This document shows, in pieces, positions 1,843-63,271 of a stretch of 64,000 bases of DNA; the first letter of the stretch is position 1; each line of letters starts with the position of its first letter. Origin of the DNA: an uncultured delta proteobacterium (GTDB taxonomy: Bacteria > Desulfobacterota > GWC2-55-46); assembly GCA_963727865.1 (NCBI GenBank), contig CAVSHY010000014.1:38236-102235 (forward strand), given 5' to 3'. A program made the translations under genes and the position numbers. A model generated the notes under the pieces. That model ran no database searches, had not been told where the DNA came from, and saw only the letters and a list, made by a program, of their open reading frames with translations.

Positions 1843-3894
1843 ATGGAAAACGTTAAAGCGCTCAACAAGTTCAGCGAGCTTGACGCCCTCTCGATAAATA
1901 CCATAAGGTTTCTCGCGGTCGATTGCGTTGAGGCCGCGAATTCCGGGCACCCGGGGATGCCGATGGGCGATGCTCCCATGGCTTATGCGCTATGGACGCG
2001 ATTCCTCAGGCATAACCCCGGAGACCCGAGGTGGGCCGGCAGGGACCGTTTTATCCTTTCAGCTGGCCACGGTTCCATGCTCCTCTATTCCCTCCTTCAC
2101 CTGACAGGATACAACCTGCCCCTTGATGAGCTCAAGAAATTCAGGCAATGGGGGAGCCACACCCCTGGGCATCCCGAGTATGACCTGAATATCGGGGTGG
2201 AGACCACGACAGGGCCCCTCGGCCAGGGTTTCGCCACGGGCGTCGGCATGGCGATGGCCGAGAAATATCTCGCGGAGCGGTTTAACAGGCCCGGGTTCCC
2301 GGTCTTTGATTACAATATCTACGCCATAACAAGCGACGGCGACATGATGGAGGGGGTCTCGAACGAGGCCGCCTCGATGGCCGGGCACCTTGGGCTCGGC
2401 AAGATCGTCTACCTCTATTCGGATAACAGGATTACCATAGAAGGAAGCACGGACCTCTCGTTTACAGAGGATGTCGCGAAGCGTTTTGAGGGCTTAAAGT
2501 GGCATGTCCAGAAGGTGGGGGGCAATGACCTCCCCTCGATAGCCGCGGCGATACAGGCGGCTAAAGAGGAGACGGCGAGGCCGTCCCTCATTATCGCGCG
2601 GACCAATATCGGCTTCGGCAGCCCCGGAAAGCAGGATACCGCCGAGGTCCACGGCGCTCCCCTTGGGCACGAGGAGGTAAGGGCGACGAAGGAGCGCCTC
2701 GGCTGGCCCCTTGAGCCTGGCTTCCATATCCCCGAAGAGGCGCTTAAGGCCATGAGGCAGGCGGTCCCGAAAGGCGGGGAATTACAGAAGAAATGGAACT
2801 CCATGCTTGAAAAATACTCGAAGGGGTATCCGGAACTCGCGGCTGAATTAAAAAATCTTCTCGCGGGCAGGAAGGATGATTCCTGGATAAAAGAGATGCC
2901 CGCATTTACCGTAAAGGACGGCCCCATAGCCACAAGGAGCGCCTCAGGCAAGGTCCTGAACGCGATAGCTAAGAAAACGCCTTTCCTCATGGGAGGCTCC
3001 GCTGATCTGGCGCCGTCAACGAATACGCTTTTAAAGGGCATGGGGAACTTCCTCCCGGGGAAGGCGGGAAGGAACATCCACTTCGGGGTGCGCGAGCACG
3101 CCATGGGCGCCGTGCTTAACGGGATGGCCTTGAGCAGGATGCTGATCCCCTACGGCGCGACGTTTTTGATTTTTTCGGATTACATGCGCCCCCCGATGCG
3201 TCTCGCGTCCCTCATGGGGCTCCATGTCATATATGTCTTTACCCACGACTCCGTCGGCCTCGGGGAAGACGGCCCGACGCACCAGCCCGTTGAGCATATC
3301 GCCGGCTTAAGGACGGTGCCGCGCATGACAGTAATCCGTCCGGCTGACGCCTCGGAAGTCGTCGAAGCCTGGAAGCTCGCGCTCCTCCATGAAAAAGGCC
3401 CGGTCGCCCTGGTGCTGACGAGGCAGAACCTTCCTGTAATCGACAGAAGCCGGTTCGCCTCCGCCGAGAATCTCTCGCGCGGCGCATATGTCCTTGCCGA
3501 TCCTTTAGAAGGATCCCCGGAGATCATACTTATCGGTACGGGTTCGGAAGTGCATCTCGCGCTGGGCGCGTATGAAGAACTTTCAAAGCGGGGCGTTAAG
3601 GCCAGGGTAGTAAGCATGCCGAGCTGGGAGGTCTTCGAGGCCCAGGAAGCCGATTATAAATCCTCGGTGCTGCCGCCTGAGGTAAAGCTCCGGATTTCGA
3701 TAGAAGCCGCGTCCCCCATGGGCTGGCACCGCTACGTCGGGCCGGAGGGGGACGTGATCGGCCTTGAGAGGTTCGGCGCGTCGGCCCCGGCCGGGACCCT
3801 GTTTGAGAAATTCGGCTTTACGGTTGAAAACGTAAGCAAAAGGGCGATGGATCTCATCAACAGAAAAAAGGGGCTCTTCCTCGACAGGATCTGA
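1843..3894 (+). CDS. tkt: transketolase
   Basis: Motifs GHPG (TPP binding), full N, middle and C-terminal transketolase domains; start taken at [10 protein letters not shown] (ATG 1843). Confidence 0.95.
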
Positions 3895-4228
3895 AAACGG
3901 ACGCGGGGAAACCTGTCTTTCTGAAGATGCATGGCGTTCACCTGCCCGAAGTTTACCGCGGGGAGCTTCAATGATCAGCCCTAAAAAACTTATTTTTAAT
4001 ACCCCGTCTCAAAAAAGACCCGGAAGAGGAACGAGTCTTCCTGAAAACCTGAATTGCCGGCAGGACGCCTTTTTTGCGGGCCGCCGGGACTCTGCTATAC
4101 TTGGTTCATAAATCTCCGTTTTGCGCAATCCGTTTTCAGCCGCACCAGCGAAATCGCATCCGGCGCTCCGTTGTAGATGAAGCCGTGCCTGAAACGTCTT
4201 ATTATTTTCCGTGAGAAGGAGGCATGTC

Positions 4229-7117
4229 TTGAACCCTTTGCTGGAATTGAAAAAACTCGGCCAGAGCGTATGGTTCGATAACCTGAGGAGGGGCCTTGTC
4301 ATATCAGGCGAGCTCAAGCGCATGATGGATGAATACGGGATTACTGGCGTCACGTCGAACCCCACCATATTCGAGAAGGCGATAGCCGGCACAGACGAAT
4401 ACGATGAGGAGATACAAAAGCTCGTAAAAGAGGATCTCGAAGAAGCGGACATAGTCAAAGAGCTCGTGATAGATGACATAAAAGGAGCCGCCGACGTATT
4501 AGCCCCCGTATTTAAAGAGACCGGCGGGAAGGACGGCTTTGTCTCCGTAGAGGCGAGGCCGACCCTGGCGAGGGATACGAAAGCGGCCATTGTTGACGCG
4601 AGGGGTCTTTTTTCACGCATAAACAGGCCGAACGTGATGGTAAAGGTCCCGGCGACCGCGGAAGGCCTTCCCGCGATAGAAGAGCTCACCTTCGAGGGTT
4701 ACAACATAAACGTAACGCTTCTTTTTTCGGTCGACCGGTATGAAGAGGCCGCGTGGAGCTATATAAGAGGCCTTGAGAGAAGGGCGGCCGAAGGCAAGCC
4801 TCTTGATAATATCTTCAGCGTGGCGAGCTTCTTTGTAAGCCGCGTCAACGTGCTCGCCGATAAGATGATAGAGGAAAGGATCGAGAAGGAAACGTCGAAT
4901 GACAGGAAGGCGCGCCTGAGAGACCTCATCGGGAAAGTGTCTATAGCCAACGCGAAACTCGCCTATATAAGATATAATGAAATATTCAACAGCCCCAGGT
5001 TTTTGGCGCTTGAGGAGAAGGGGGCCAAACCGCAAAAACTCCTCTGGGCGTCCACTTCCACAAAGAACCCGAAGTACAACGAACTCATGTATGTGGACGG
5101 GCTCATAGAAAAGGGCACCATAAGCACGATTCCGCTACACACCATGCTCTCTTTCTACAGCCACGGCAAAGTAAGTCCAACGCTCGCCGAGGGGCTCCTT
5201 GAAGCGGCGCGGACAATCGCGGAACTCTCTCTTCTTGGCATAGACTACGCTAAACTCACGGCTCAGCTTGAGGACGAGGGGGTACGGAAGTTTACGGATT
5301 CATACCTCTCCCTTCTTAAGAGCGTGGCTGAAAAGAAGAAAAAGATACTCGGGGAGAAAGTCCGCGCCGTTGAGTTCGCCCTGGACGGGTTTATTGAGAG
5401 CGTCAACAAGGCCGTGGGCGAGATGGAGAGCAGGGGATTCATCCACAAGCTCTGGGCAAAGGACCCGGCTTTATGGAAAAAAACCCCCGGCGATAGAAAG
5501 CTTATAACCGATTCTCTCGGGTGGCTCACGCTCCCCGAGCTGATGGAGGTCCATAAGGATGCCATAAATTCCTTCGCGGTTGACGTCAGGAATTCCGGTT
5601 TCACCGACGTGGTGCTTCTCGGGATGGGCGGGTCGAGCCTCGCCCCCCTTGTCTTAAATACGGCTTTCGGCCGTCAAAAAGGGTACCCTGAACTGACCGT
5701 CCTCGACTCTACGGACACGGACGCTATAAAAGCTGTAAACGATCATATTGACCCTCTAAAAACACTTTTCATAGTATCGAGCAAATCCGGTTCAACGATA
5801 GAGCCGCTCTCTTTTTTCGAGTATTTTTACGACAGGGTTTACAGCTCCGCGGGGGAAGACGCCGGGAGGAACTTTATCGCCATAACCGACCCCGGGACCC
5901 CGCTCGAAGGGTTCGCGAGGAAGTACAGGTTCAGGCGTATATTCCTGAACCCGCATGATATAGGCGGCCGTTACTCGGCCCTTTCGTTCTTCGGCCTTGT
6001 GCCCGCGGCCCTCGCCGGGATAGACATATCAAGGCTCCTCTATTACGCCGGATGCGTTTCTGCCGCCACTCAGCCTTGCGTGCATCCCGCGGAAAACCCG
6101 GCCGTAAGCCTCGGGGTGGCCCTGGGGACGCTTGCCGCTTCCGGGATCGACAAGGTTACATTCCTTCTTTCAAAGGAGGTCTCAAGCTTCGGCCTCTGGG
6201 TCGAGCAGCTTCTCGCGGAAAGCACCGGTAAGGACGGCGTGGGGCTTATCCCTGTCACGAACGAGCCGATTGGGAGCCCTGAAGCTTACGGTGACGACCG
6301 CGTCTTTGTCTATATCGGGATCGGAGAGCCTGATAAGAAGACCTTTAGCCTCATCAAGGCCCTTGAAGCCGACGGACACCCGGTCATCTCCTTCCGCCTT
6401 GAAAACATCCATGAGATCGGAGGAGAGTTCCTCAGGTGGGAGGTCGCAACGGCCGCGGCCGGTTCGGCCATGGGCATAAACCCCTTTGACCAGCCCGACG
6501 TTGAGCTTTCGAAGAAAAATACCGCAGCCCGCTTGGGTAAGATCGGTAAAAAAGGCGGGGGCCTGAAACTCCCCGGTGTCGCGCTCGAAGGGCCGGAATT
6601 CAAGATATCCTTCGGCAAAGCCGCCTTCAAAAAACTCAGGAAAACAGGGTTTAAAGCGGAGCATGGCGTAAAAAAGGCGATGAAGAACTTCATGGGGTTC
6701 ATAACTGAAGGGGACTACATCGGGGTGCTCGCGTACTATAACCCGATGGACGATAAAGTGGAGAAGATATTGGCGGAGCTGAGGGCGCTTCTTCGCGACT
6801 CCACCGGGGCCGCCACGCAGTTCGGCTGGGGCCCGCGTTATCTGCACTCAACAGGCCAGCTCCATAAAGGCGGCCCGGATAAAGGGGTCTTTTTAATATT
6901 AACGCACGGGTCAAAAGAGGAGGCTCGGATCCCGGGCAGTTCCTTCAGCTTCCCGGAACTCGAGCTCTCGCAGGCCTTCGGGGACATGGAGGCGCTTGAT
7001 TCAAAGGGGCGGAGAGTGGCGCTGCTGCATCTCAAGGACTCAACCGCGGAGACTCTTCAAGAGGCCGTGGATTTCATAAAAGGCGCCATACTTCAGGCTA
7101 CTGCCGCTGTTAAATAG
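4229..7117 (+). CDS. bifunctional transaldolase / glucose-6-phosphate isomerase
   Basis: N-terminal ~350 aa transaldolase (NPLLELKKLGQSVWFDNL, TSNPTIF); C-terminal ~600 aa PGI/SIS domain. TTG start at 4229 after RBS AAGGAGG. Confidence 0.85.
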   Translation: MNPLLELKKLGQSVWFDNLRRGLVISGELKRMMDEYGITGVTSNPTIFEKAIAGTDEYDEEIQKLVKEDLEEADIVKELVIDDIKGAADVLAPVFKETGGKDGFVSVEARPTLARDTKAAIVDARGLFSRINRPNVMVKVPATAEGLPAIEELTFEGYNINVTLLFSVDRYEEAAWSYIRGLERRAAEGKPLDNIFSVASFFVSRVNVLADKMIEERIEKETSNDRKARLRDLIGKVSIANAKLAYIRYNEIFNSPRFLALEEKGAKPQKLLWASTSTKNPKYNELMYVDGLIEKGTISTIPLHTMLSFYSHGKVSPTLAEGLLEAARTIAELSLLGIDYAKLTAQLEDEGVRKFTDSYLSLLKSVAEKKKKILGEKVRAVEFALDGFIESVNKAVGEMESRGFIHKLWAKDPALWKKTPGDRKLITDSLGWLTLPELMEVHKDAINSFAVDVRNSGFTDVVLLGMGGSSLAPLVLNTAFGRQKGYPELTVLDSTDTDAIKAVNDHIDPLKTLFIVSSKSGSTIEPLSFFEYFYDRVYSSAGEDAGRNFIAITDPGTPLEGFARKYRFRRIFLNPHDIGGRYSALSFFGLVPAALAGIDISRLLYYAGCVSAATQPCVHPAENPAVSLGVALGTLAASGIDKVTFLLSKEVSSFGLWVEQLLAESTGKDGVGLIPVTNEPIGSPEAYGDDRVFVYIGIGEPDKKTFSLIKALEADGHPVISFRLENIHEIGGEFLRWEVATAAAGSAMGINPFDQPDVELSKKNTAARLGKIGKKGGGLKLPGVALEGPEFKISFGKAAFKKLRKTGFKAEHGVKKAMKNFMGFITEGDYIGVLAYYNPMDDKVEKILAELRALLRDSTGAATQFGWGPRYLHSTGQLHKGGPDKGVFLILTHGSKEEARIPGSSFSFPELELSQAFGDMEALDSKGRRVALLHLKDSTAETLQEAVDFIKGAILQATAAVK

Positions 7118-7198
7118 CAGAGCGTGTTTTCCGGAAAGGAACTTTCCGCCTGAAAGTTTTCAAGAGCGCCCTTTAAAAAACGGAGGGGGGAGGGGAAA

Positions 7199-8107
7199 AT
7201 GCAGATAGGAATGATCGGCCTTGGCCGGATGGGCATGAACATGGCGCGTAGGCTCCTCATAAACGGCCACAGCGTGGCCGCGTATGACAGGTCAGGGGAT
7301 AAGGTCGGGGAGGCCGGGAGGGAAGGCGCCGCCCCGGTTTTTTCATTAAAGGAACTGGCGGATAAACTTTCAAAGCCGAGAGTCCTCTGGATCATGGTCC
7401 CGGCCGGGAAACCGGTCGATGATGCCATAGCGGAATTAAAGCGGCATCTATCCCCCGGGGATATTGTGATAGACGGGGGGAACAGCCGCTATACGGACGA
7501 CATCCGCCGGGAGGATGAGCTTAAGAAGGTAAATATAAATTACATGGATGCCGGGGTTAGCGGCGGCGTGTGGGGGCTTAAGAACGGATACTGCGTCATG
7601 GCCGGCGGCGAGAGGGAGCTTTTCGGGCATATCGAGCCGCTTTTAAAATCTCTCTGCGCGCCAGAGGGTTATCTCTACTGCGGCCCCATAGGCAGCGGGC
7701 ATTTCGTGAAGATGATCCATAACGGGATCGAGTACGGGATGATGCAGGCCTACGGCGAGGGGTTCGAGATCCTTAAAGCGTCGAGGTACGGCGAAGGGCT
7801 CGACTTCGCGGACGTGGCGCGGCTGTGGAACAGGGGAAGCGTAGTCAAGTCGTGGCTCCTCGAACTCCTTGAGAACGCGTTCAGGAAGGACAGGAACCTG
7901 GAGTCGATAAAGGGATACGTAGAGGACTCGGGCGAGGGAAGGTGGACGGCAATGGAGGCGATAGATCTCGCCGTAAGCGCGCCGGTCATAACCGAATCCC
8001 TTTACCGGAGGTTCCGCTCCAGGCAGGAGGAGTCTTTCTCGGAGAAGGTCCTGGCGGCCCTCAGGGCGGAGTTCGGCGGGCACGCTGTCAAACCTGAGCA
8101 TAAATAG
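7199..8107 (+). CDS. gnd: 6-phosphogluconate dehydrogenase (decarboxylating), short NAD-binding form
   Basis: 302 aa; [19 protein letters not shown] Rossmann N-terminus and 6PGD C-terminal domain; RBS GGAGGGGGG. Confidence 0.85.
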
Positions 8108-8130
8108 ATCTTTTAAACGGCGGGGGCTTT

Positions 8131-9720
8131 ATGTCGATAGGGGAAACAAAAATGGAGAAGGGAACGCCCGTAACGGCCGTGAGGGTCGGCGAGCTGGAAC
8201 TGACCGGAGAGCCGTGCGTGGAATTCTGCCCGCCGCCCTGCGGCGTAGTGATATTCGGGGCTTCCGGAGACCTCACCGCGAGGAAGCTCGTGCCTTCTTT
8301 TTATAATCTCACCAGAAACGGCCTCCTTCCGAAAAACTTTTTTATCATGGGCGCTTCCAGGACGAAGATGGATGACGAATCCTTCAGAAACGCCATGGAA
8401 GAGGCCGTAAGGACACACGCCAGGTTCGACGAATCCGTCTGGAAGGACTTCAGGAAGAGGCTTTTCTACAGGCCCGCCTCCGACATCAAATCTTTCGAGA
8501 ATATCAGGGAATCCCTGCTGGAGAAGGAAAAGGAGTTTGATACCCTTGGCAACAGGATATTCTACCTCGCGACCCCGCCCTCGGCCTATTCTGAGATCAT
8601 AGAATACCTGGGCGCCACCGGGATGTCCGAAGAAACAGGAGGCGGCTGGCCGCGCGTAGTAATAGAAAAACCTTACGGGAAGGACTTAAAGAGCGCCCTT
8701 GAACTGAACGAGGTGGTGCTCAGGAGCTTCGGGGAGGAACAGGTCTACAGGATCGACCATTACCTCGGCAAGGACACGGTGCAGAACATCATGATGTTCC
8801 GCTTCGCTAACGCCATATTCGAGCCGATCTGGAACAGGCGCTACATAGACCACGTCCAGATTACCGCCGCCGAGGAGATAGGCATCGAGAAGAGGGCCGG
8901 GTACTACGAGCAGGCCGGGGTGCTCCGCGACATGTTCCAGAACCATATGCTCCTGGTCATGTCTCTTGTCGCCATGGAGCCGCCTTCGGTCTACGAGGCC
9001 GATCTTGTAAGGGACGAAAGGGTCAAGGTCTTCAGGGCGCTAAGGCCCCTGCCGATGGATAACCTTTCAGATTCCCTTGTTACCGGCCAGTACGTGGCAG
9101 GCAAGGTCCGCGGCGGTTTCGTCCCCGGTTACAGGGAGGAAAAGGGTGTCGCGAAGGATTCGTCCGTGCCGACTTTCGCGGCGATGAAGCTTTATATAGA
9201 CAACTGGAGATGGCAGGACGTGCCGTTTTACCTCAGGTCGGGTAAAAGAATGGCGAAGCGGTTCTCCCAGGTTTATATCCAGTTTAAGCATGTGCCGCAC
9301 CTGATGTTCAAGAACACCATTAAAGAAGGGATCACGCCCAACGCCCTTGTTCTCAAGATCCAGCCCGATGAACGGGTACAGCTCAAGTTCCACACGAAAA
9401 ACCCGGGCTCAAGGGTGAGTCTGCGCGATGTGGTCATGGATTTTTCATACACTGAAGGATACAAGGGGATCATACTCGACGCGTACGACAGGATGCTCCT
9501 TGACTGCATGATCGGAGATAAGACCCTTTTTATCAGGAAGGACGGCGTGCGCCTCACGTGGGCGCTCCTGACCCCGGCGCTTGACCTCCTTGAAAAGGGC
9601 GGGCCCGGGGACGCGAGCAAAATTCCTGAACTCGGCATTTACAGGGCCGGGACCCTGGGGCCGGCCGAGGCCGACAGGTTCATCCAGAAGGACGGCAGGC
9701 GGTGGAATAATGACGACTGA
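8131..9720 (+). CDS. zwf: glucose-6-phosphate 1-dehydrogenase
   Basis: 529 aa; [14 protein letters not shown]-binding motif and RIDHYLGKD active-site motif. Confidence 0.95.
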
Positions 9721-16007: not shown

Positions 16008-16125
16008 GAACGGGTGCTCACCGCAATCCCGCCGCTTTAGAGGCGGGATTGCGGCGAGCTATAAAAATGACAATCACCTTACCGTGAAGAATCCCCGTCA
16101 TTTATGGCGGGGTTCTTCAATCCGG
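16008..16125 (+). repeat. repeat family B copy (two hairpins flanking conserved ATAAAAATGACAATCACCTTACCGTGAAG core)
   Basis: Near-identical copies at 34422-34538 and 45712-45815, an inverted diverged copy at 37860-37990, and a degenerate copy at 16245-16378. Confidence 0.75.
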
Positions 16126-16551
16126 TCTTTTGTAAAATGAAAGAGATAAACCCGCGGCGATAGCCCCCTTGCGGATTGATTTTATAACAGGATTCTGATA
16201 AACTCCGGAATCGCGGTAAGGCTGAATGGGTGTGCCAGCCGCTCACCGCCGAAAGGCGAGCGGTTTTTCCATCCCGTCGCTTTAGCGGCGGGTCAAGGCT
16301 GGCAAATATAAATGATTATCCGTACCATCGAAATTCTCAGCCATTTATGGCGGAGGATTTTAATCTTCCCGGCAGCGTCAATGCTTATGTAATCCACAGT
16401 TCTAATCTTCCTTTAATCAACGCCGCGTTATAATGAAATATAAGGGAAAAATGCCTGTTAGACCGTGCCCGCGCGATTTGCGGGACGCGGGGGCGTCTAA
16501 AAGGAGTTGAAAAATGAGCGGAGGCGGCAGCGAGCGCGTTTTAACGGATGT

Positions 16552-20627: not shown

Positions 20628-20963
20628 TCAGGTTAACGCCGGAGCGGAACCCTTAAAGGGTTCCGCTCCGGTCTTTTTAATAGAATTTATACCGGCAACC
20701 CGGCCAGGGGGATCATTTCGCCGGGCAGCAACCTGAACAATCGGGCTTGCCGGGCTTGCGGGAGTCTCTTTTTTGGCGTCCTTTTTCGCGTAATCGGTCT
20801 GATACCAGCCGCTGCCCTTCAGCACGAAAGAGGACTGGGAGATGAGTTTTTCCACCTTGCCCCCCGCACAGTGTATGCATTTTTTTACGGGCTTATCCGA
20901 AAACTTCTGGATAAGCTCGAATGTCTTCCCGCAGTCATTACATATATATTCGTAAATCGGCAT
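20628..20963 (-). CDS. FmdB-family zinc-ribbon protein
   Basis: [16 protein letters not shown]...CIHCAG CxxC...CxxC signature; the C-terminal tail runs through a perfect 13-bp-stem hairpin (20637-20676). Confidence 0.65.
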
Positions 20964-21107: not shown

Positions 21108-21298
21108 AATTATTAATGTCTGTATTCCTAATGTCCTATTGATTAATTACTTTATTGAATGACAAATAGCGGCTCATTTTAATCCCCCCTTGCCCCCCTT
21201 TAAAAAAGGGGGGATTAAAGTCCCCCTTTGGAAAAGGGGGATTGAGGGGGATTTGATGCGATAGATGCTTGGGACATTAATTTTACAGTCTTCAATTA
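21108..21298. mobile_element. 191-bp MITE-like element, copy 1
   Basis: ~95% identical direct copy at 23116-23306. Imperfect terminal inverted repeats (ATTAATGTC / GGACATTAAT). Internal G/C-tract palindromes CCCCCCTTTAAAAAAGGGGGG and CCCCCTTTGGAAAAGGGGG. Confidence 0.6.
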
Positions 21299-21311
21299 AA
21301 ATCCAGAGGAC

Positions 21312-22327
21312 CTACTTTACGAGGTAGGACCCGAGGGTCTCTCTTGTCCCCTCGAAAGTGGCGATAGTCTTCGCGCTCCAATCGGGTTTTACCCTGTATG
21401 CCGAAGGGGCCGCGTAGTAAGAGTCAACCGCCTCCCTCAGGACCCCTGTCATGGCGCTCACGTAACTTTTTGTCCGCTGCCTGCCTTCTATCTTGAAGGC
21501 GGCGGCTCCGGCCTCGATGAGATCGGGCACGATCCTGAGGATATTGAGCGACTCCGGGTCTTCAAGCACATATGAGACAGAGCCGTCGGGTTTGATGTAC
21601 CTTCCCTTGCAGCAGGTGGGGTAGGGCGAGGATTCCGTGGCGGAGAGCCTGTTCAGCAGAACGTTATTCAGCGTTATCGACATGCCGCCGTCCGGGTTAT
21701 TTATGAACCGGACGAAGCGAGAAGGGGAGCACGCCCCCGTGGTATTGGTCGACGCCCCTGTTACGAATGAAGAGAGGTAGCACCTCCCTTCGATGTTTAT
21801 GCAGAGGCCACCCTAGACGCGAAGACCTCTATCTCGACGTCGGTACGCTCCTTGAGTTCCTTTATCTCTTTTACGGTAAGGACGCGGGGGAGCACGACCC
21901 TTTTTATGCCGAAGTGCTTCTTATAGAAATTTATGCTTTCATAGTTGGACGCGCTTGCCTGGGTAGAGAGATGCAGGTTCGCGTCGGGGTATTTCTCCCT
22001 CGCGTATTTGAGTACTCCGAGGTTGGCTATTATGATCGCGTCCGCCTTGAGAGAGGCGGCCCTGTCCACGGCCGTAAACCACCTCGCGCAGGAATCCTCC
22101 TGGGGAAAGGTGTTTATGGCGACAAAGAATTTCCTGTTCTTCGCCCTTACGTATTTGATCCCTTCCTCAAGCTCCTTCGGGGTGAAATTGAGCCCCTCGA
22201 AGTTCCTCGCGTTCGTGTCGTCGTTGAAGCCGAGATATACGGCGTCGGCGCCGCTGTCTATGGCGGCCTTGAGAGAAGCGATATTCCCCGCCGGTGAGAT
22301 TACCTCGACTTTTTTCATGGTTTTCAA
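21312..22327 (-). pseudogene. peptidase U32 family, disrupted (frameshift near 21700-21800)
   Basis: The N-terminal 176 aa (21797-22327) has a U32 fold (..DAVYLGF..; ends EVFASRVASA*). The C-terminal part (21312-21683, ..AFKIEGRQ..) is in a different frame, and the expected HGALC..SGRC region is garbled. Confidence 0.55.
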
Positions 22328-22354
22328 AGGGTCAATTCCGGGTTGTTGATCTTC

Positions 22355-22771
22355 TTAAAACGGCACGTCGTCTATGTCAGACGGCGGGATTTCGCCTGCC
22401 GGAGGCTCAGCAGGCGAAGCGGCGGCGCCGCCTTCTTTCGGGGCGCTCCCTAACATCTGCATGGTGTTGGCGACTATCTCGGTCATGTACTTTTTGTTGC
22501 CGTCCTTGTCGTCCCAGCTCCGGGTCTGGATCTTACCCTCGATATAGACCTGCTTGCCTTTCGCAAGATACTCGCCGCATATCTCGGCGAGTTTTCCGAA
22601 GGTCACGATCTTGTGCCACTCCGTCTTGGTCTCCTTCTGGCCGTCCTTATTTACCCTTGTTTCGCTTGTGGCGAGCCTGAAGTTCGCCACGGCGGTCCCG
22701 CTTGGCGCATAGCGTATCTCAGGGTCCGCCCCGAGATTCCCCACGAGAATAACCTTATTGATCCCGGCCAT
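22355..22771 (-). CDS. ssb: single-stranded DNA-binding protein
   Basis: [18 protein letters not shown].. OB fold, Gly/Pro-rich tail ending DDVPF (short form of the usual DD(I/D)PF acidic tip). Confidence 0.9.
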
Positions 22772-23115
22772 ATTGACTCCTTTTTTATACAGAGTGTCAT
22801 TACTGTGCATACCTTCGTTGTTCCTCAGCTCGTCGCTGTGGCGCACGGTAAAAGTGCGCCACACTCCTCGCCATCGTCACGCCTCGGTCTGCTTTGTTCT
22901 GACGCTCTGTATGCGCAATTATTTATGACGCCGTGTTTAATAATAATTACTTGAGCAACATATTTAAAGTTTAAAGCTTTTTATCTGAAAAACAATTTAC
23001 CACCCAATGAGGCTTTACGCAAGTTTTTTAAACTGAAAGTCTTTGGCCTTACCTTGCTTCAGAAGGGTAAGTAAGAATTATCTTCAATATTTTGTTAACT
23101 TGCCGTATTATAATG

Positions 23116-23306
23116 AATTATTGATGTCTGTATTTCTAATGTCCTATTGATTAATTGCTATTATTGAATGACAAATAGCGGCTCATTTTAATCCCCCCTT
23201 GCCCCCCTTTAAAAAAGGGGGGATTAAAGTCCCCCTTTGGAAAAGGGGGATTGAGGGGGATTTGATGCGATAGATGCATGGGACATTAATTTTACAGTCT
23301 TCAATT
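23116..23306. mobile_element. 191-bp MITE-like element, copy 2
   Basis: See copy 1; same orientation, 2008 bp downstream. Confidence 0.6.
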
Positions 23307-23354
23307 ATTTGATTCCAGTGCCAAAATTTAATTAAAGGGAAACAAAGCAAAACA

Positions 23355-24063
23355 GTGTTCTTAAGGACATTATTCGTATGGGCCGTGGGGCTTCCCGTAA
23401 CGCTTGTCTTATTTCTGGCAGTCCTTCTTTCGCTTGTCATAGATAGAAAAGGCGGCTACATCCACGGAATAGGCTCGCTCTGGTTAAGGATAATACTCAA
23501 GCTTTCGGGCGTCAAAGTGACCGTAAAAGGGGTTGAAAACATCCCGAAGGCTGGCCCGGTGGTCTTCCTTTCGAACCACCAGGGCGCCTTCGATATACCG
23601 GCTTTACAGGGCTATATCCCGAAAAGGTTCAAGTGGGTGGCAAAGAGGTCCCTTTTTAATATCCCGGTAGTCGGCTGGTCGATGAGCCTCGCCGGATATA
23701 TCGCGATAGAAAGGGAGAGCGCCGGGAGCGCGTATAAGAGCATCGAAGCCGCGGCCGGGGAGATAAAAAAAGGGAAGTTCCGTCCTAATATTCCCGGAAG
23801 GCACGAGGAGCGTAACCGGGGAGCTCCTGCCCTTTAAACGCGGGGCCTTTATGCTCGCTTCACGGGGCGGTGCGCCGGTTATCCCCGTTGCCATTACGGG
23901 CACGAAGGATATAATGCAGAAAGGGAGCCTTTTAATAAGGCCTTCCGCCGTGACCATTTTAATAGGAAGCCCCATCCCGACTCAGGGCTTAAGCGAGCCG
24001 GAACTCAGGTCGCGGACTAAGGAGGCTATCGCGCGGCTTTTAAACTCTAAAGAACTTTCTTGA
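23355..24063 (+). CDS. plsC: 1-acyl-sn-glycerol-3-phosphate acyltransferase, with +1 bp insertion in A7 run at 23765-23771
   Basis: NHQGAFD (HX4D) motif in frame 1. After the poly-A run, frame 2 reads SSVLIFPEGTRSVTGELLPFKRGAFMLA (canonical PlsC block III/IV). Removing one A restores ..GEIKKGSSVLIFPEGTRS.. Confidence 0.8.
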
Positions 24064-24118
24064 GGATTATAAAAATTCATCATGGAAAACGGAGACTGAT
24101 TTGGAAAATAACGGAGAG

Positions 24119-25810
24119 ATGACCGGAAAAATGGAAATGACCGGAGGAGCCGGAAAGCCGCCGGTAAAGATAATCCCCCTCGGCGGCCTCGGAGAGATCG
24201 GGATGAACATGATGTGTCTGGAGTGCGGGGACTCGATAATAATAATCGACTGCGGCCTCATGTTCCCGGAAGACTACATGCTCGGGATAGACCTCGTCAT
24301 CCCCGACATAAGCTACCTGAAAAGGGTAAAGGACAAGGTCAAGGCGTTCATAATAACCCACGGCCATGAGGACCACACGGGCGCGCTCCCTTTTATCCTC
24401 AGGGAGATTAACGCCCCCATCTACGGCACGGCCCTTACCCTGGGCCTCATAGAAGAAAAACTCGAGGAGTTCGACCTCGTCAAATCCACCACCTTTGAGA
24501 CCGTAAGGCCGAGGGACAGGATTTCCATCGGCCCTTTTGACATAGAGTTTATCCGCGTAAGCCACTCGATAGTGGACGGCTGCGGGCTTGCCATAACAAC
24601 GCCGCAGGGCATAATCGTGCATACCGGGGACTTCAAGATGGACCAGACCCCGGTCGACGGAGAGGTGATGGACTATGCCCGGTTCGCCGAGTACGGGGAA
24701 AAAGGGGTGCTCGCCTTCATGTCCGACTCCACGAACGTCGAGAAGGAAGGGTATACGCTTTCCGAAAAGGAGATAGGGTACAACTTCGAGGAGATATTCA
24801 GGAGGTGCGAGGGGAGGATAATAGTAGCCGTCTTCTCGTCGAACATACACAGGATCCAGCAGGTCATGGACGCCGCGGACAAGTTCGGGAGAAAGGTCAT
24901 CCTTAACGGCAAGAGCATGGTCGCCAACGCGAAGATAGCGAGGACGCTCGGATACCTCAAGGCCTCCGACGGGCTTGTCATCGACATCAAGGAACTCGAA
25001 TCCTTCCCCCCCCAGCGCGTCGTGCTCCTTACGACAGGGAGCCAGGGCGAGCCGATGAGCGCGCTTACGAGGATGGCGATGGATAACCACAAGCAGTTAA
25101 AGGTCCAGAAGGGCGATACGATAATACTCTCGTCAAAATTCATCCCCGGCCACGAAAAGGCGATCTCTACGATGATGAACCACCTCTATAGAAGAGGCGC
25201 CGACGTAATATACGAAAAGGTCTCGGAGGTGCACGTCTCGGGGCACGCGAGCCAGGAAGAGCTCAAGATAATGCTCAATATCGTAAAGCCCAGGTACTTT
25301 ATACCCGTCCACGGCGAGTACAGGCACCTCGTGCTCCACGGCCGGCTCGCCGAGAGGGTCGGGATCCCCTCCGTGAATGTCATGATAGCCGAGGACGGAG
25401 ACGTCATAGAGTTCACTGAAGCAGGGATGGAGAAAAAAGGCAGGGTAGAATCCGGCAAGGTATTCGTTGACGGCAAAGGCGTAGGGGACGTCGGCGCCAT
25501 GGTCATCAAGGACAGGACACATCTCTCCCAGGACGGCATGGTCCTTGTCGTGATCGCCCTTAACGAAAAGACGGGTGAGATAGTCTACGGCCCGGATATC
25601 GTGACAAGGGGCCTTGTGTTCGAGGAGATCAGCGCGCCTTTGCTCGAGAACGCCAAAGCCATCGTGATGGATACCCTCAATAACATAAACCCCGAGGCGA
25701 AGACAGACCAGTTCGAGGTCAAGGAAGAGATACACAGGGCACTGAGGAGGTTCTTCAACAAGACCCTCGAAAGAAGACCCGTGATACTGCCCGTGATAAT
25801 AGAGATTTAA
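24119..25810 (+). CDS. rnj: ribonuclease J
   Basis: KIIPLGGLGEIGMNM, HGHEDHTGALP metallo-beta-lactamase motif, beta-CASP and RNase J C-terminal domain; start could be 24101 (TTG), 24119 or 24131. Confidence 0.9.
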   Translation: MTGKMEMTGGAGKPPVKIIPLGGLGEIGMNMMCLECGDSIIIIDCGLMFPEDYMLGIDLVIPDISYLKRVKDKVKAFIITHGHEDHTGALPFILREINAPIYGTALTLGLIEEKLEEFDLVKSTTFETVRPRDRISIGPFDIEFIRVSHSIVDGCGLAITTPQGIIVHTGDFKMDQTPVDGEVMDYARFAEYGEKGVLAFMSDSTNVEKEGYTLSEKEIGYNFEEIFRRCEGRIIVAVFSSNIHRIQQVMDAADKFGRKVILNGKSMVANAKIARTLGYLKASDGLVIDIKELESFPPQRVVLLTTGSQGEPMSALTRMAMDNHKQLKVQKGDTIILSSKFIPGHEKAISTMMNHLYRRGADVIYEKVSEVHVSGHASQEELKIMLNIVKPRYFIPVHGEYRHLVLHGRLAERVGIPSVNVMIAEDGDVIEFTEAGMEKKGRVESGKVFVDGKGVGDVGAMVIKDRTHLSQDGMVLVVIALNEKTGEIVYGPDIVTRGLVFEEISAPLLENAKAIVMDTLNNINPEAKTDQFEVKEEIHRALRRFFNKTLERRPVILPVIIEI

Positions 25811-27959: not shown

Positions 27960-28115
27960 CCACCTAAAATACCTTGGTTTTCCCGCTGACCCGGCTTCCT
28001 GAAGTAAAAAGAATTTACAAAAATCCGGATATCGTGTTATAATTGTTACAATTTGAATCCTGATAGTATTTTTGCGGGCAATTATAATGCTTACCGGAAC
28101 CTGCCTGCCCGTTAT

Positions 28116-28262
28116 GAAAATGCAACGCGAGCGCCCTGCCCGCTGCTTGCAGCGGGGTCAAGCGAGCGGATAGAATTTTTGAAGTCCTACGCGAGACGTC
28201 TCTAATTTTCAGGCGCCCCATGAAGGACTCTGAAAAATCCTTACATTTCGAAGATTCGCTGA
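28116..28262 (+). repeat. repeat family A copy (modular composite element)
   Basis: GAAAATGCAACGCGAGCGCCCTGCCCGCTGC..GCAGCGGGG hairpin module plus the AATAGAATTTTTGAAGTCCTACGCGAGACGTCTCTAATTTTCAGGCGCCCCATGAAGGA module. Copies at 30814-30985, 44285-44520 (inverted), 45368-45600, 58511-58640, 62868-62940 and 63040-63235, with partial copies elsewhere. Confidence 0.8.
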
Positions 28263-28322
28263 CCCCCCTGCGCTCTTTTTTTATAAGGCGGCAAAGAGTC
28301 TCTAAAAAGAACTCCGGCGACG

Positions 28323-30093: not shown

Positions 30094-30816
30094 ATGCGGT
30101 ACTACCCAGTATTCCTTGACATAACCGGCCGGTCCTGCGTCGTGGCGGGCGGCGGAGTTGTAGCGGAAAGAAAGGTTCAGGGGCTTCTCAAGGCCCGCGC
30201 TTCCGTTACCGTTATAAGCCCTCGAGTCACGAAGGTTTTAGAGAAACTCGCCCAAAACGGAACGATCCGCCTCATCAGAAGAAAGTATAAGAAAGGAGAC
30301 CTTCTCGAAGCGGCCGTAGTTATTTCCGCTACCGCCTCAAAGGCCGTAAACAAAGAAATATTTGAAGAGGCCGCCCGCTTAAAGACCCTCGTAAACGTCG
30401 TCGATGACCGCGCGAACTGTAACTTTATCGTCCCTTCGGTTATTGACAGGGGGGGCCTTATAATAGCGATATCCACTTCAGGAAAGGCGCCCGGGCTTGC
30501 CAGGAAGATTCGGGAAGACCTCGAAAGATATATAGGAAGCGAGTATGAAGATTTTACCTCCATCGCAGGGGCCGTAAGGAAGAAGTTGTTGAAAAATGAA
30601 GCAAATCATGATAAAAAGAAAAGAGTTATCGAGGCCTTGGCGGATTCGCCGATCCTTGATTGGCTGAGGCGGGGAGATAGAGAGGTCAGGGAGATAAATT
30701 CTTTTCTTAAAGGGCTTCTCGGAGCCGGGTTTACTCTGTCGAGGCTCGGGGTCAAATTAAAAACCGGCCCTAAAGTGTCTAAAACAACAAAACCTAAAAA
30801 GGGGACAGGGGTCTGA
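30094..30816 (+). CDS. precorrin-2 dehydrogenase / sirohydrochlorin ferrochelatase (SirC/CysG N-terminal-like)
   Basis: MRYYPVFLDITGRSCVVAGGGVVAERKV Rossmann N-terminus typical of siroheme synthase N-domain. Confidence 0.7.
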   Translation: MRYYPVFLDITGRSCVVAGGGVVAERKVQGLLKARASVTVISPRVTKVLEKLAQNGTIRLIRRKYKKGDLLEAAVVISATASKAVNKEIFEEAARLKTLVNVVDDRANCNFIVPSVIDRGGLIIAISTSGKAPGLARKIREDLERYIGSEYEDFTSIAGAVRKKLLKNEANHDKKKRVIEALADSPILDWLRRGDREVREINSFLKGLLGAGFTLSRLGVKLKTGPKVSKTTKPKKGTGV

Positions 30817-31027
30817 AAATGCATGCGAGCGCCCTGCCCGCTGCTTTCAGCGGGGTCAAGCGAGCGAATAGAACTTTTAAAGTCCTACGCGAAACGCCGC
30901 TGATTTTCAGGTTCTCCATAAAGGACTCTGAAAAAACTTACATTTGGAAGATTCCCCGCAGCTTGCCGCGGGGAGCTTCAAATGCCGCGCCTTCGAAATG
31001 TGATCGCGCCGGATTTCTCCGATTATA

Positions 31028-33167: not shown

Positions 33168-33269
33168 GTCAAAAGGCCGTTTAAGCCACAGCAGGGTTCG
33201 ATTAGTCCCAACGCGTTTCTAAAGGCGGAGCGCACGGGGACGAATTTAAAAAAAGGAAAGGCAAGGATT

Positions 33270-34212
33270 TTGAAAAAGATCACGATCGGAACGCGCGGCA
33301 GCATGCTCGCGCTCTGGCAGGCGAACTGGGTAAAGTCGGAGATAGAAAAAAGAAACCCCGGCCTTGAAGTCGCCCTCGAGAAGATAAAAACCACCGGGGA
33401 TAAGATAACCGATGTCCCGCTCGCGATGGTAGGGGGGAAGGGGCTTTTCGTAAAGGAGATAGAAGAGGCCCTCCTTTCCGGCAAGGCCCAGCTCGCCGTC
33501 CACTCGATGAAGGACGTGCCGACGATATTCCCCGAGGGCCTTCATCTCAAGGCCATAACCGAGAGGGAAGACCCGAGGGACGCTCTTTTCAGCAGAAATG
33601 ATATAAAGCTACTCGACCTCCCGAAAGGGGCGCGGATAGGCACTTCGAGCCTGAGAAGGCAGGCGCAGATACTGAATAAGAGGCCTGATTTTCAGATACT
33701 TCACCTGAGGGGCAACCTCGATACCCGCATGAAGAAGCTCGATGAAGGGCGACTTCGACGCCATAATACTCGCGGGGGCCGGCGTAAAGAGGCTCGGATG
33801 GGCAAGTAGGATCACCGAATTCATCCCGCCGGAAGTCAGCCTTCCGGCGATAGGCCAGGGGGCGCTCGGCATAGAGACCCGCACCGAAGATAAATTCATA
33901 AACGGCCTTGTAGAGTTCTTTAACCATCCTGAGACCTCTGCGGCCGTAAGGGCCGAACGGGCGCTGTTAAAGAGGCTCGAGGGCGGGTGCCAGGTCCCGA
34001 TCGCGGCTTACGGAGAAGTCAAGGGCGAGAGCCTCAGGCTTACGGGCCTTGTCGCGTCCACCGACGGGAAGACCATCGTAAAAGACGTAATCACCGGGGA
34101 TAGGGACGAGGCAGAGGCCATTGGGGTAACTCTCGCCGAAAAGCTCCTCAAGATGGGGGCATGGGATATCTTAAAAGACCTCTACGAAGTAAACCCTCCG
34201 GGCGGGGCGTAA
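33270..34212 (+). CDS. hemC: porphobilinogen deaminase (hydroxymethylbilane synthase), +1 G in GGG run near 33745
   Basis: IGTRGS.LALWQA.. N-terminus. Frame switch between ..[12 protein letters not shown] and [16 protein letters not shown]; removing one G gives the canonical [13 protein letters not shown]. Confidence 0.85.
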
Positions 34213-34421
34213 AGACCTTTAAATTTTTGAGAGGACCGTCCGCCCCCAACCCTATCCACGCAAGGAGCGGGATAAGCGCCAGCCTGTGGAATATCGAAGG
34301 GTCACGGATATCCATGGGGGGGGGCGCCAAAGACAGTACGCAGGATTTTTTTAAACAAACCGGGTTTTTCTTCGGGAACGTTTACGTTCATTTAAACCGC
34401 CTTATTTTTAAAGTGGGCAGT

Positions 34422-34538
34422 TGAACGGGTGCTCGCCGCAATCCCGCCGCTTTAGAGGCGGGTCAAGGCGAGCTATAAAAATGACAATCACCTTACCGTG
34501 AAGAATCCCCGTCATTTATGGCGGGGTTCTTCAATATG
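34422..34538 (+). repeat. repeat family B copy
   Basis: Near-identical to 16008-16125 and 45712-45815. Confidence 0.75.
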
Positions 34539-37859: not shown

Positions 37860-37990
37860 ATTTTTGGATTGAAGAACTCCCGCATAAATGCCGGAGTTCC
37901 CGATGGTAAGGTATGTCATTTATATTCGCCGCGCCTTGACCCGCCCGGCCTTTTAAGGGCGGGCAAGGCGGGCGTTCCATTCACCGCACA
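37860..37990 (-). repeat. repeat family B copy (inverted orientation, diverged, compensatory stems) between cbiA and the ThiC-family gene
   Basis: On the - strand the core ATATAAATGACATACCTTACCATCG is flanked by hairpins CGCCTTGCCCGCCC..GGGCGGGTCAAGGCG and GAACTCCGG..CGGGAGTTC. Other copies have GAATCCCCG..CGGGGTTC at the same position. Confidence 0.6.
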
Positions 37991-39369
37991 TCTTTACAAA
38001 ACCGCTCGCGAACGCCGGGTTACTCCCGAAATGGATGTGTATGTAGCTCGCGAGAGTGTTTTTGTAGAGGTAGCCTTCCGAAACCTCTCTCCTCTCCCTG
38101 TTTTTAAAACTGAAAATCCTTTTTATCCTTGAAGGCGGATTTGAGATTTCCGAGTAGTGGTATTCGTGGCCCCTTACTGTGCCGCCGGCGGGGAGTATGG
38201 GAGACGGCTTGATTTGAACCTCCCTGTACCCGAGAGCCTTTCTCCTAAAAAGCATCCGCGATCTCCATGGGAAAACGCCGCACTGGGAATAACTCTTTCC
38301 GCCCGTGTCCACGATAGATTTTCCGAGGTACATAAGCCCGCCGCACTCCGCGTATATCGGCAGCCCCATTTTAGAGAGGCTCTTCAGTTCCTCCCTCATT
38401 GAAAGGTTAGCCTGAAGCTCTTTAGCCCGGAGCTCCGGGTACCCGCCGCCGAGGTAGACCCCGTTTATTCCAGGGGGCAGACCCTTATCTTTAAGGGGGC
38501 TGAAGAAAACAATGCGGGCGCCGAAGCCCCTCAATAGCTCAAGATTTTCTTCGTAATAGAAACAAAACGCCTTATCCCGCGCGACGGCTATACTTACCGC
38601 GGGCTTCCTGCATTGCGCTTCTTCTAAACCCTTTAATCTTACGCGTCCGCTTTGCGGCAATCCTTTCAGAAGGCTTTTTAGATCGATATTTTTTTCAATG
38701 AACGAGGCGGCCTTCCCTATAAACCTTTTCCACGCCTTTCCTTCGAATGTCCGCGGAAGTAACGAGACCGAGGTGGCGTTCCGGCATCGATAAAGACTCG
38801 TCCCTCGGCACGCAGCCGAGCACCCTTGCGTTCGAATCACGCGGCGCCGAGTCCCTTAAGACCTTGCAATGAGCGGGGCTCGCGACCTTATTAAAGACGA
38901 CCCATCTGACATTAACCTGAGGGTCGAAACTCTCAAACCCCTTTATGATCGCCCCGGCGCTTCTCGCTGTTTTTGAAGCGTCAATTACAAGCAGAACCGG
39001 GAGATTTAGGAGCTTTGAAAGCCCTGAGGTCGAGCCCTCGTCGCTCAGGCCGTCTTTGCCGTCAAAAAGGCCCATCACCCCCTCAATGACCCCTATATCC
39101 GCCCCTGTCATATTCCTGAGGAAGGTATCTCTTACTCCACGGTTCCCCATCATCCAGGTATCGAGATTATATGAAGGCCTTTTCAGGAGCGCGCTGTGGT
39201 GGCCGGGGTCTATGTAATCGGGACCGGCCTTAAAGGGCTGGACAATAAGGTTTCTCCGTCTGAGCGATTCCATAATGCCGAGGGTAATTAGGGTCTTGCC
39301 GGAGCCGCTGCTAACGCCCGCAATGATAAAGGCGGAAGGGTCCGTAAAGTTTTTTTTCTTTTTTTCCAT
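37953..39369 (-). CDS. cbiA: cobyrinate a,c-diamide synthase (CbiA/CobB), frameshifted near 38720-38760
   Basis: N-terminal ATPase domain (GVSSGSGKT) in ORF 38695-39369, C-terminal GATase domain (..AECGGLMYL..) in ORF 37953-38840; the frames switch within an AAAGG/AAAAGG-rich stretch. Confidence 0.8.
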
Positions 39370-39414
39370 TAAAGAATACCCGCCGGAAAAGAGAAAGGCG
39401 TTGACAGGCCGCGG

Positions 39415-43189: not shown

Positions 43190-43400
43190 CGACCCTCTCC
43201 CTCGGAAGGCCCTACTCCATACGGTCAGGCAGGTCTCCTGGCTCGCGGGTCATCCTACTCTCTTTTCCTTCCCGGCCCTGTCGGCCAGTGGCAGTTAGAT
43301 AAGATTTCGTCGCCGCTTACAGTTGCGGGGCAGCTCCCGATTCTACGGGATTCCCTTTTGGCCCGGTTGCCGGGCACCTGACAGCGAGTAATCAGATTTA
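43190..43400 (-). ncRNA. cobalamin (AdoCbl) riboswitch aptamer
   Basis: On the - strand AAGGGAATCCCGTAGAATCGGGAGCTGCCCCGCAACTGTAAGCGG ... CTGCCACTGGCCGACAGGGCCGGGAAGG: the conserved GGGAA/UCC, GCCCCGCAACUGUAA and B12-box GCCACUG ... GGGAAGG elements are in canonical order. Confidence 0.8.
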
Positions 43401-45308: not shown

Positions 45309-45367
45309 ATATATCTGACAGGACGCGTAAAGGCCCGTTTTAGGGGAGGCTTTTGTTTTTTTAGCTG

Positions 45368-45600
45368 AAAATGCAACGCGAACGCCCTGCCCGCCGCAAG
45401 CAGCGGGATCAAGCGAGCGAATAGAATTTTTGAAGTCCTACGCGAGACGTCTCTAATTTTCAGGCGCCCCATGAAGGATATTTTTAACGTCCTTTGCGAA
45501 ACGCCGCTTATTGTCAGGTTCTCCATAAAGGACTCTGAAAAAACTTACATTTGGAAGCTTCCCCGCAGCAAGCTGCGGGGAAGCTTCCAAATTTTTGACT
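45368..45600 (+). repeat. repeat family A copy (full modular set)
   Basis: Modules A, B, C and D in order; the best reference copy. Confidence 0.8.
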
Positions 45601-45711: not shown

Positions 45712-45815
45712 GGGTGCGCCGCAACCGCCGCTTTAGAGGCGGGCAAGGCGAGCTATAAAAATGACAATCACCTTACCGTGAAGAATCCCCGTCATTTATG
45801 GCGGGGTTCTCAATT
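45712..45815 (+). repeat. repeat family B copy
   Basis: See 16008-16125. Confidence 0.75.
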
Positions 45816-58510: not shown

Positions 58511-58640
58511 CGGGCTGTGAAAATGCAACGCGAGACGCCTCTCCTTTTCTGGCGCCCCATAAAGGACTCTGAAAAAACTTACATTTGGAAGATTCCCGGC
58601 AGCTTTTCTGCGGGGAGCTTCAATCTTTTCCCCGATCTGC
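58511..58640 (+). repeat. repeat family A copy
   Basis: Modules A, C and D. Confidence 0.75.
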
Positions 58641-63235: not shown

Positions 63236-63271
63236 GTGTTTTTTTCCGGCAGGCGTGGGAGAAAAATTTCT

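Follow-up and report, generated by a model that had tools for sequence, protein, structure and literature searches.

Two copies of a probable non-autonomous palindromic repeat flank ordinary genes in a delta proteobacterium and share their core with many bacterial phyla

The DNA analysed here is a 64-kb (64,000-nt) window of contig CAVSHY010000014.1 from an uncultured delta proteobacterium related to sulfate reducers; all positions are counted within this window. It contains two near-identical repeats, copies A and B, lying about 2 kb apart on either side of ssb and a gene of the U32 peptidase family. Our analysis indicates that the two copies are probably a small non-autonomous palindromic repeat, of the repetitive extragenic palindromic (REP)/REPIN kind or that of MITEs (miniature inverted-repeat transposable elements), inserted twice into intergenic gaps of an ordinary chromosome, and not the ends of a cassette. 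At the level of the locus this outcome is deflationary, the flanking repeats being selfish or neutral intergenic passengers. Small dispersed palindromic repeats are objects of an ordinary kind; this one has a core that is unexpectedly cosmopolitan, and, as far as the sequences tell, its unusual point is the near-identity of that core across many phyla.

Two near-identical copies of a non-coding unit

BLAST aligned copies A and B over 192 columns, of which 187 were identical (97.4%), the differences being four substitutions and one indel. The original prediction had described two direct copies of approximately 95% identity; the direct orientation was borne out, while the identity is higher and copy B ends at 23307 and not at 23306. 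At the single indel a repeat finder divided the repeat into two blocks, one of 44 nt (93%) and one of 147 nt (99%), and the longest tract identical between them measures 116 nt. Four of the five differences fall within the first 46 nt (binomial P ~0.013). When the copies were aligned together with their flanks, the likeness stopped abruptly at both ends and the flanks were unrelated. No third copy, whole or partial, was detected in the window by BLAST or with the covariance model described below.

Both copies are intergenic. The open reading frames (ORFs) of 42 and 85 aa found on copy B are spurious, having neither homologues nor a Pfam match. No candidates were returned when the 42-aa ORF, which runs across the element, was used as query in a protein search, and Pfam recognised nothing in four reading frames of the element.

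Architecture and folding of the unit

The unit comprises a 73-nt core set between arms of 73 nt and 45 nt. In copy A, ATTAATGTC at 21112-21120 is an exact 9-nt inverted repeat of GACATTAAT at 21273-21281, and a second motif, TAATGTCC at 21129-21136, pairs with GGACATTA at 21272-21279. Read by eye, the extended inverted-repeat arms match at 16 of 21 positions, and the fold pairs these arms. The inverted repeats are subterminal, situated 4-5 nt from the ends of the unit.

The core follows the pattern AATCCCCCC..CCCCCCTTTnnnAAAGGGGGG..CCCCCTTTnnnAAAGGGGG..GGGGGATT and constitutes an inverted doublet of a unit of ~33 nt (AAATCCCCC-linker-CCCCCTTTnnnAAAGGGGG), which forms a 9-bp hairpin with a C5-6TTT/AAAG5-6 stem. 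In copy A, hairpin 1 (21193-21213) and hairpin 2 (21221-21241) lie within an outer stem, AATCCCCC/GGGGGATT. Folded as single-stranded DNA, either strand of the core adopts a three-way structure with two 9-bp hairpins and 3-nt loops, at about -24 kcal/mol and a z-score of about -4. The single-hairpin pattern gave 12 matches against 0.07 expected and the double-hairpin pattern 4 matches against 0 expected. Moreover, both window cores scored equally well with the covariance model, and no other window sequence exceeded 20 bits.

Folding of both strands of the whole unit, which had been proposed as a check, yielded -65.8 kcal/mol (z -4.8) and -63.7 kcal/mol (z -5.7) against dinucleotide shuffles. 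On either strand, the minimum-energy fold pairs the left arm with the right; folded alone as single-stranded DNA, the arms form no structure. Whether treated as RNA or as DNA, each strand folds far better than its shuffles. The lengths of homopolymer runs inside the element should be read with the same caution as the probable assembly indels of the window discussed below. The original prediction thus held in its description of short imperfect terminal inverted repeats, recovered as a 9-nt exact inverted repeat whose arms pair in the folds, and of a palindromic G/C-tract core, whose hairpin patterns occur far above chance. Together, the imperfect terminal inverted repeats and the stable folds support its view of a non-coding, highly structured small repeat of the MITE/REP kind.

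The core belongs to a family dispersed across bacteria

A scan of GTDB, with one genome per species, for two CCCCCTTTnnnnAAGGGGG hairpins 4-14 nt apart returned at least 120 matches, and 132 loci (numbered with the prefix L) were fetched. Near-identical core modules occupy more than 120 loci in at least 12 phyla. Among the matches listed, carriers of deltaproteobacterial type belong to Desulfobacterales, Desulfobaccales, Syntrophales, Syntrophobacterales, Desulfomonilaceae, Geobacteraceae and Desulfuromonadaceae. The same matches include Nitrospirae, Nitrospinota, Schekmanbacteria, Zixibacteria, Ignavibacteria and Aminicenantes; Myxococcota, Scalinduaceae, Methylomirabilis and Dehalococcoidia; and Methylobacter with other Methylococcaceae, Nevskiales, Lysobacterales, one betaproteobacterium, Hyphomicrobiales and one cyanobacterium. 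An isolate, Thiorhodococcus mannitoliphagus DSM 18266, is also among them. When the window element was compared with these loci by BLAST, only element positions about 74-150 aligned, with 86-92% identity, and the best matches among the listed loci, in keeping with the host, came from Desulfobaccales and other "Deltaproteobacteria".

The module was also found on finished Acinetobacter indicus plasmids, where it lies between two genes of the pca operon, on plasmids of Pseudanabaena, Leptolyngbya and Synechocystis, and on 7 viral contigs. Culturable carriers include Acinetobacter indicus HY20 (plasmid pAI01) and Synechocystis PCC 7339, and genomes rich in modules include Nitrospirae NC_groundwater_1770, Thermodesulfobacteriota MAG151, Ignavibacteria CoA_1_bin.73 and Thiorhodococcus mannitoliphagus DSM 18266. 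Its occurrence on finished isolate plasmids and viral contigs indicates that it is not an artefact of metagenome-assembled genomes (MAGs). Many module copies lie less than 100 nt from true contig ends, as expected of a repeat that breaks short-read assemblies.

From an alignment of 67 oriented module copies we derived a consensus whose left half reads AAATCCCCCC-(3-4 nt)-CCCCCCTTT-nnn-AAAGGGGGG, followed by a 6-14-nt spacer, often TTAAAGT, and whose right half reads CCCCCTTT-nnn-AAAGGGGGA-(TTTA, TACA or TTGA)-GGGGGATTT. Its two halves are inverted copies of one unit and differ from each other slightly but consistently. The covariance model (R1) built from this alignment detected up to five modules in 8 kb (L022), four in 8 kb (L056) and one-hairpin singlets. 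An inverted partner lies within 30 nt of 97 of the 143 units; singlets and triplets also occur. In a Desulfobaccales-centred subfamily the module sits inside conserved arms of its own, which suggests that an arms-plus-core unit is a general pattern. In L121, the relative with 91% RNase J identity, the model placed diverged modules at other positions (5517-5592, 5599-5662 and 9020-9113), and module positions therefore appear to turn over.

Two further arrangements were seen within the family. Tandem arrays of at least three CCCCCTTTnnnAAAGGGGG hairpins with a constant spacer, which could be mistaken for CRISPR-like arrays, occur at L093 3570-3740, L107 ~6660, L120 ~5430-5520, L033 75-183 and L078 2208-2437. 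At L046 ~4856-4943 a module lies inside a long ORF (ATPase-like by eye) and is read through as ...PLGPPFPKGDFSGFPPL..., an example of how a module can lengthen or disrupt an annotated protein and give rise to spurious PPFxKGG peptides.

The core family is indifferent to orientation and neighbouring genes

Taken as a family, the cores are multi-copy and extragenic; they recur in many phyla and show no preference for an orientation or for particular neighbours. Modules lay outside crude ORF calls in 129 of 157 cases. The gaps holding them were tandem, convergent and divergent in the numbers 65/17/12, like the background of 299/69/64, and there was no orientation bias: downstream of genes, module polarity was sense in 22 cases and antisense in 32, and upstream the counts were 14 and 21.

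An all-against-all BLAST of 1,048 nearby ORFs contained no transposase cluster, and no recurrent neighbour family emerged from Pfam on the 150 closest ORFs, which fell into 161 families, none present in more than three ORFs. Neither tnpA nor tnpB lay near any examined module, and no transposase family recurred among these ORFs, within 8-kb samples that would rarely include a single-copy gene. The possibility that the module pair represents the ends of an autonomous insertion sequence (IS) was ruled out, the units being almost always tight doublets and none of them enclosing a transposase-sized insert. Finally, the module stems displayed no informative covariation and are conserved in sequence, as in a young DNA repeat.

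The element is absent from both sites in relatives

The surroundings of the two copies were compared with those of three relatives, L121 (91% RNase J identity) and L122 and L123 (82%). All three share the order holin-family gene (Pfam Phage_holin_4_2), IMPase, Zn-ribbon, U32 (334 aa, intact), ssb, plsC, RNase J. When the Zn-ribbon/U32 and ssb/plsC gaps of these relatives were examined, the element was present at neither site, and the gaps are too short to hold it (125 bp for Zn-ribbon/U32 in L121 and 245 bp for ssb/plsC in L122). Conserved synteny in relatives that lack the element at either site argues for a lineage-specific gain in intergenic DNA.

Each relative carries one variable insertion in the otherwise conserved gene order. 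In L121, a Vsr/HNH/DNA-methylase island with DUF2950 (3267-8112) separates U32 from ssb, and in L122 an MFS transporter gene (6346-7617) stands between Zn-ribbon and U32. To judge from these comparisons, change is concentrated in the gaps bordering U32 and ssb, and the genes themselves are fixed.

We propose that the palindromic dispersed repeat would have entered the Zn-ribbon/U32 and ssb/plsC gaps in two separate insertions. It would spread by way of single-stranded hairpin DNA handled in trans, the mobiliser being perhaps an HUH/Y1 transposase (a REP-associated tyrosine transposase (RAYT) or an IS200/IS605-like enzyme) encoded elsewhere. Any local effect would be a side effect of the very stable hairpin: copy A may incidentally end or stabilise the ssb-U32 transcript, and copy B might structure the plsC leader or the region upstream of ssb.

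Several observations weigh against this proposal. The sequence AATTA stands at the start and end of both copies (AATTATT in copy B); being the same in both, it is indistinguishable from element sequence and leaves a target-site duplication undecidable, and the relatives are too diverged at both gaps for an empty-site comparison. Across the window, the 132 loci and the JGI metagenomes, the full 191-nt unit is known from two copies only. The window has 2 modules per 64 kb, a low density beside that of REP-rich genomes. With no transposase among the module neighbours, the means of mobilisation is something that we can only infer. Furthermore, the invariance of the stems was partly forced by the search pattern and is to that extent a matter of ascertainment.

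Local copying as a less likely alternative

The alternative that we rate highest, although we consider it unlikely, is that the core landed only once, for example in the plsC leader, and that a 191-nt stretch including native flanks was then copied ~2 kb away by template switching or illegitimate recombination. It draws on the restriction of the arms to this locus: they were absent from the 132 fetched loci by BLAST and from the JGI metagenomes when these were searched with arm-specific 24-mer and 20-mer patterns, the protein search with the ORF found nothing, and two copies are all that is known. The clustering of the copy differences in the left arm is also in keeping with it, as is a left-arm 11-mer, GTATTCCTAAT, found at the orthologous place in the plsC leader of L122. 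This match, however, is not significant, since shuffles scored as well in 114 of 2000 trials for copy A and in 891 of 2000 for copy B, and the left arm was accordingly rejected as ancestral plsC-leader sequence. Moreover, the arms pair as inverted repeats, which would not be expected of arbitrary local sequence, and other lineages carry the module inside conserved, family-specific arms. Insertion of an arms-plus-core repeat remains our preferred explanation of the two copies.

An improbable role as a functional RNA structure

We regard as improbable a second alternative, in which the unit serves as an RNA structure: a terminator or 3' stabiliser for ssb-U32 in copy A, a plsC or ssb leader in copy B, or a small RNA. 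Its appeal lies in the very stable folds (-64 to -66 kcal/mol, z -4.8 and -5.7) and in the setting of copy A. This copy starts 14 nt beyond the U32 stop codon, lies 78 nt ahead of a strong promoter-like site of the Zn-ribbon gene (TTGACA-17-TAAAAT at 21029-21001), and on its minus strand has an alternative hairpin followed by a T6 run that scored as terminator-like. Copy B, in contrast, occupies a divergent promoter region and not a 3' end; it lies just downstream of a block common to the relatives that resembles a plsC promoter, and would then be part of the plsC leader.

The family as a whole speaks against such a role, being without enrichment at 3' ends, orientation bias, covariation or association with a gene class. 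Rfam gave no match at the gathering threshold and, at E<=10, only chance matches to miRNA and snoRNA families. The suggestion that the element is a structured small RNA was consequently not supported, at least for a strand-specific one, which is unlikely on these grounds. The context, orientation, neighbour and covariation tests speak against a dedicated terminator, a riboswitch-like leader and a small RNA.

Highly improbable alternatives: an excisable cassette or an assembly artefact

The original prediction had also pictured ssb and a decayed peptidase as plasmid or phage cargo enclosed by direct repeats, that is, an excisable or mobile 2-kb cassette. In principle, 191-nt direct repeats with a 116-nt identical tract could support RecA-dependent deletion, and ssb is frequent on mobile elements. 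Nevertheless, we consider this explanation highly improbable. The blocks U32-ssb-plsC-RNase J and Zn-ribbon-IMPase-Phage_holin_4_2 are syntenic in the 91% and 82% relatives, which keep the gene order without the element; a conserved syntenic context for ssb had been named beforehand as an outcome that would tell against the cargo view. This ssb, the only one in the window, encodes a protein with a housekeeping acidic tip and, in a reading of the printed sequences, ~90% identity to the SSB of the relatives. The G+C content of the ssb-U32 segment equals that of its surroundings, and no integrase, transposase, recombinase, IS or cassette-level target duplication was found at the segment among the window ORFs, by Pfam or by alignment of the flanks. 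A foreign origin of the segment was rejected on the grounds of synteny and unremarkable G+C. On this comparative evidence, ssb and U32 are ordinary chromosomal core genes and not mobile cargo.

The interruption of the peptidase gene, also part of the cargo view, is present in the assembled sequence, but does not appear to be reliable biology. U32 has 2 extra bases at about 21814-21817, GCG[T]CT[A]GGG against GCGCTGGG in the relatives. Outside the segment, plsC is frameshifted in an A7 run (23765-23771), where dropping one A restores the frame, and hemC (33168-34209) and cobQ (37956-39414) are each split into two frames. With no fewer than four conserved genes frameshifted in 64 kb, including some that are normally essential, or roughly one indel per 16 kb, assembly indel errors offer a better account than decay of U32 alone; the "broken" U32 is probably an assembly error and not a pseudogene.

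Lastly, we give almost no credence to the idea that the repeat itself is a mis-join or a duplicated consensus, for although the assembly contains indel errors and the family often breaks assemblies at contig ends, the gene order across both copies matches the independent assemblies of the relatives, the copies differ at five positions, and the module is present in finished isolate plasmids.

Features of the locus and other repeats in the window

The coordinates of the two copies, their parts and the neighbouring genes are collected in Table 1. The nearest named relatives of the RNase J are "Deltaproteobacteria" or Thermodesulfobacteriota MAGs.

Table 1. Position and strand of the repeat copies, their components and the adjacent features
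Feature	Position	Strand	Evidence and remarks
Zn-ribbon protein gene	20628-20963	-	Pfam
Repeat copy A, 191 nt	21108-21298	+	Pairwise alignment, BLAST
Left inverted-repeat arm, copy A (ATTAATGTC ... TAATGTCC)	21112-21136	+	Copy B equivalent 23120-23144
Core double-hairpin module, copy A	21181-21253	+	Covariance model, 90.9 bits
Right inverted-repeat arm, copy A (GGACATTAAT...ACAG)	21272-21293	+	Copy B equivalent 23281-23302
U32-family peptidase gene, two pieces	21312-22327	-	Pfam; ~334 aa in relatives; premature stop 21797-21799
ssb, 138 aa, C-terminal tip DIDDVPF	22355-22771	-	Pfam; ortholog at same position in relatives
Unrelated hairpin element, ~120 nt	22790-22909	.	Between ssb and copy B; terminal inverted repeats CAGAGYGTCA/TGACRCTCTG
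Repeat copy B, 192 nt	23116-23307	+	Same orientation as copy A; divergent ssb/plsC intergenic region
Core double-hairpin module, copy B	23190-23262	+	Covariance model, pattern match; identical to copy A core
plsC acyltransferase gene	23355-24063	+	Pfam; 3' of copy B; frameshift at A7 run
RNase J gene	24101-25810	+	Pfam

The unrelated hairpin element, directly upstream of ssb, folds at -54.5 kcal/mol (z -6.9) and belongs to the same repeat-prone intergenic region as copy B. A homologue of ~87% identity occurs in L121 (~9135-9255), where it is inverted and abuts plsC.

Other repeats were encountered elsewhere in the window, and the lineage, by its sequence, is rich in small intergenic repeats. 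A mosaic intergenic family with at least five copies (28113-28266, 30811-30981, 45364-45590, 58515-58605 and 62866-63239) has a conserved core, ...TTTTCAGGnnCnCCATAAAGGACTCTGAAAAAACTTACATTTGGAAG..., and a GC hairpin, CCCCGCAGCnnGCnGCGGGG; its copy at 62853-63250 contains an internal insertion of ~200 nt. A 69-nt repeat, 96-100% identical among its occurrences at 16053-16121, 34467-34535 and 45747-45815, adjoins GC hairpins of the form AATCCCGCC...GGCGGGATT, near which the C5/G5 covariance model gave weak scores of 18-20 bits (16228-16309 and 34389-34479). Two further repetitive tracts probably lie inside ORFs, namely a 93-nt tandem duplication in perfect register with 98% identity (53848-54033) and a 21-nt periodicity of 9 copies (45958-46258). 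A cobalamin riboswitch (43211-43396, minus strand, 122 bits) precedes cobO/btuR, cobU and, further on, the frameshifted cobQ, as identified by Pfam.

Possible horizontal spread of the core

Beyond the locus, it is conceivable, and we put it forward only tentatively, that the 73-nt core represents one double-hairpin DNA element, itself non-autonomous, whose horizontal spread has taken it through at least 12 phyla and onto plasmids and some phages. The groups concerned would be Thermodesulfobacteriota, Nitrospirota, Nitrospinota, Ignavibacteria, Zixibacteria, Schekmanbacteria, Aminicenantes, Planctomycetota, NC10, Chloroflexota, Myxococcota, Pseudomonadota and Cyanobacteria. If this were true, the core would represent an inter-phylum REPIN-like family without the GTAG tag, served either by a very widely shared trans-acting mobiliser or by a universal host factor able to recognise C5/G5 hairpins. 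Within a limited check of the literature, neither Rfam nor surveys of REP sequences, MITEs and stem-loops were found to describe the C5/G5 module.

The prevailing view is that REP-type repeats evolve vertically, together with a host-specific RAYT, and are species-specific. A near-identical REPIN-like doublet in sediment, groundwater and cyanobacterial genomes of many phyla would challenge that view. If confirmed, the family would provide a marker for inter-phylum DNA flow, would explain frequent contig breaks and spurious "PPFxKGG" ORFs in MAGs, and would point to a mobilising enzyme or binding protein yet to be named.

Comparison with known repeat systems

The closest parallels are with REP sequences, bacterial interspersed mosaic elements (BIMEs) and REPINs, as known from E. 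coli REP, from the REPINs of Pseudomonas fluorescens (PMC3116915) and from a wider survey (PMC3733652). The present core resembles them in its short palindromic units with GC stems, its lack of coding capacity, its extragenic location, its inverted doublets with a short spacer in both orientations, and probably its many copies per genome in some hosts (up to 5 per 8 kb in the sampled loci, against 2 per 64 kb in the window). Measured against the definition of a REP unit as an imperfect palindrome of 20-40 nt with a GC-rich stem, the core fits, having ~33 nt and a 9-bp hairpin. A conserved terminal GTAG or CGTC tag is a further criterion for REP sequences (PMC3733652), and here the resemblance ends: a terminal tag is absent, and the linkers vary and lie inside the structure. 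Given as reverse complements, these linkers are GTAG, GCAG, CAAG, TGAG and GTGG, with CAAG and ATTGA in the window copy; GTAG occurs only in a subset of modules and is internal. Judged by its sequence, membership of the tagged REP superfamilies thus fails on the tag. Other differences are that no cognate RAYT was seen among 150 neighbouring ORFs, in 8-kb samples that would rarely include it; that additional arms of 73 nt and 45 nt surround the doublet here; and that known REP families are species- or genus-specific, whereas near-identical versions of the present core occur in at least 12 phyla.

Bacterial MITEs (Correia/NEMIS, ERIC, Nezha and RUP) are similar to the full unit in being non-coding, 100-200 bp long and bounded by imperfect terminal inverted repeats, in forming a long stable hairpin when transcribed, and in inserting close to genes. 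Unlike them, the present unit has no demonstrable target-site duplication, lacks a parent IS whose ends match it, is known from only two full-length copies, and is conserved at its centre and not at its termini. As regards duplications and copy number, it is a candidate MITE only.

The non-autonomous elements derived from IS200/IS605, known as palindrome-associated transposable elements (PATEs), have two similar subterminal hairpins on one strand and transpose via single-stranded hairpin DNA without terminal inverted repeats or duplications. Both properties fit the core module alone. In contrast to PATEs, neither tnpA nor tnpB was found near the examined modules, and no conserved target tetranucleotide stands beside the module.

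Finally, Elhai et al. in 2008 reportedly described small dispersed repeats nested in larger repeats of cyanobacteria. Compared by description only, that arrangement is alike in placing a very small mobile palindromic unit inside larger, lineage-specific shells, and the present core is itself found on cyanobacterial plasmids.

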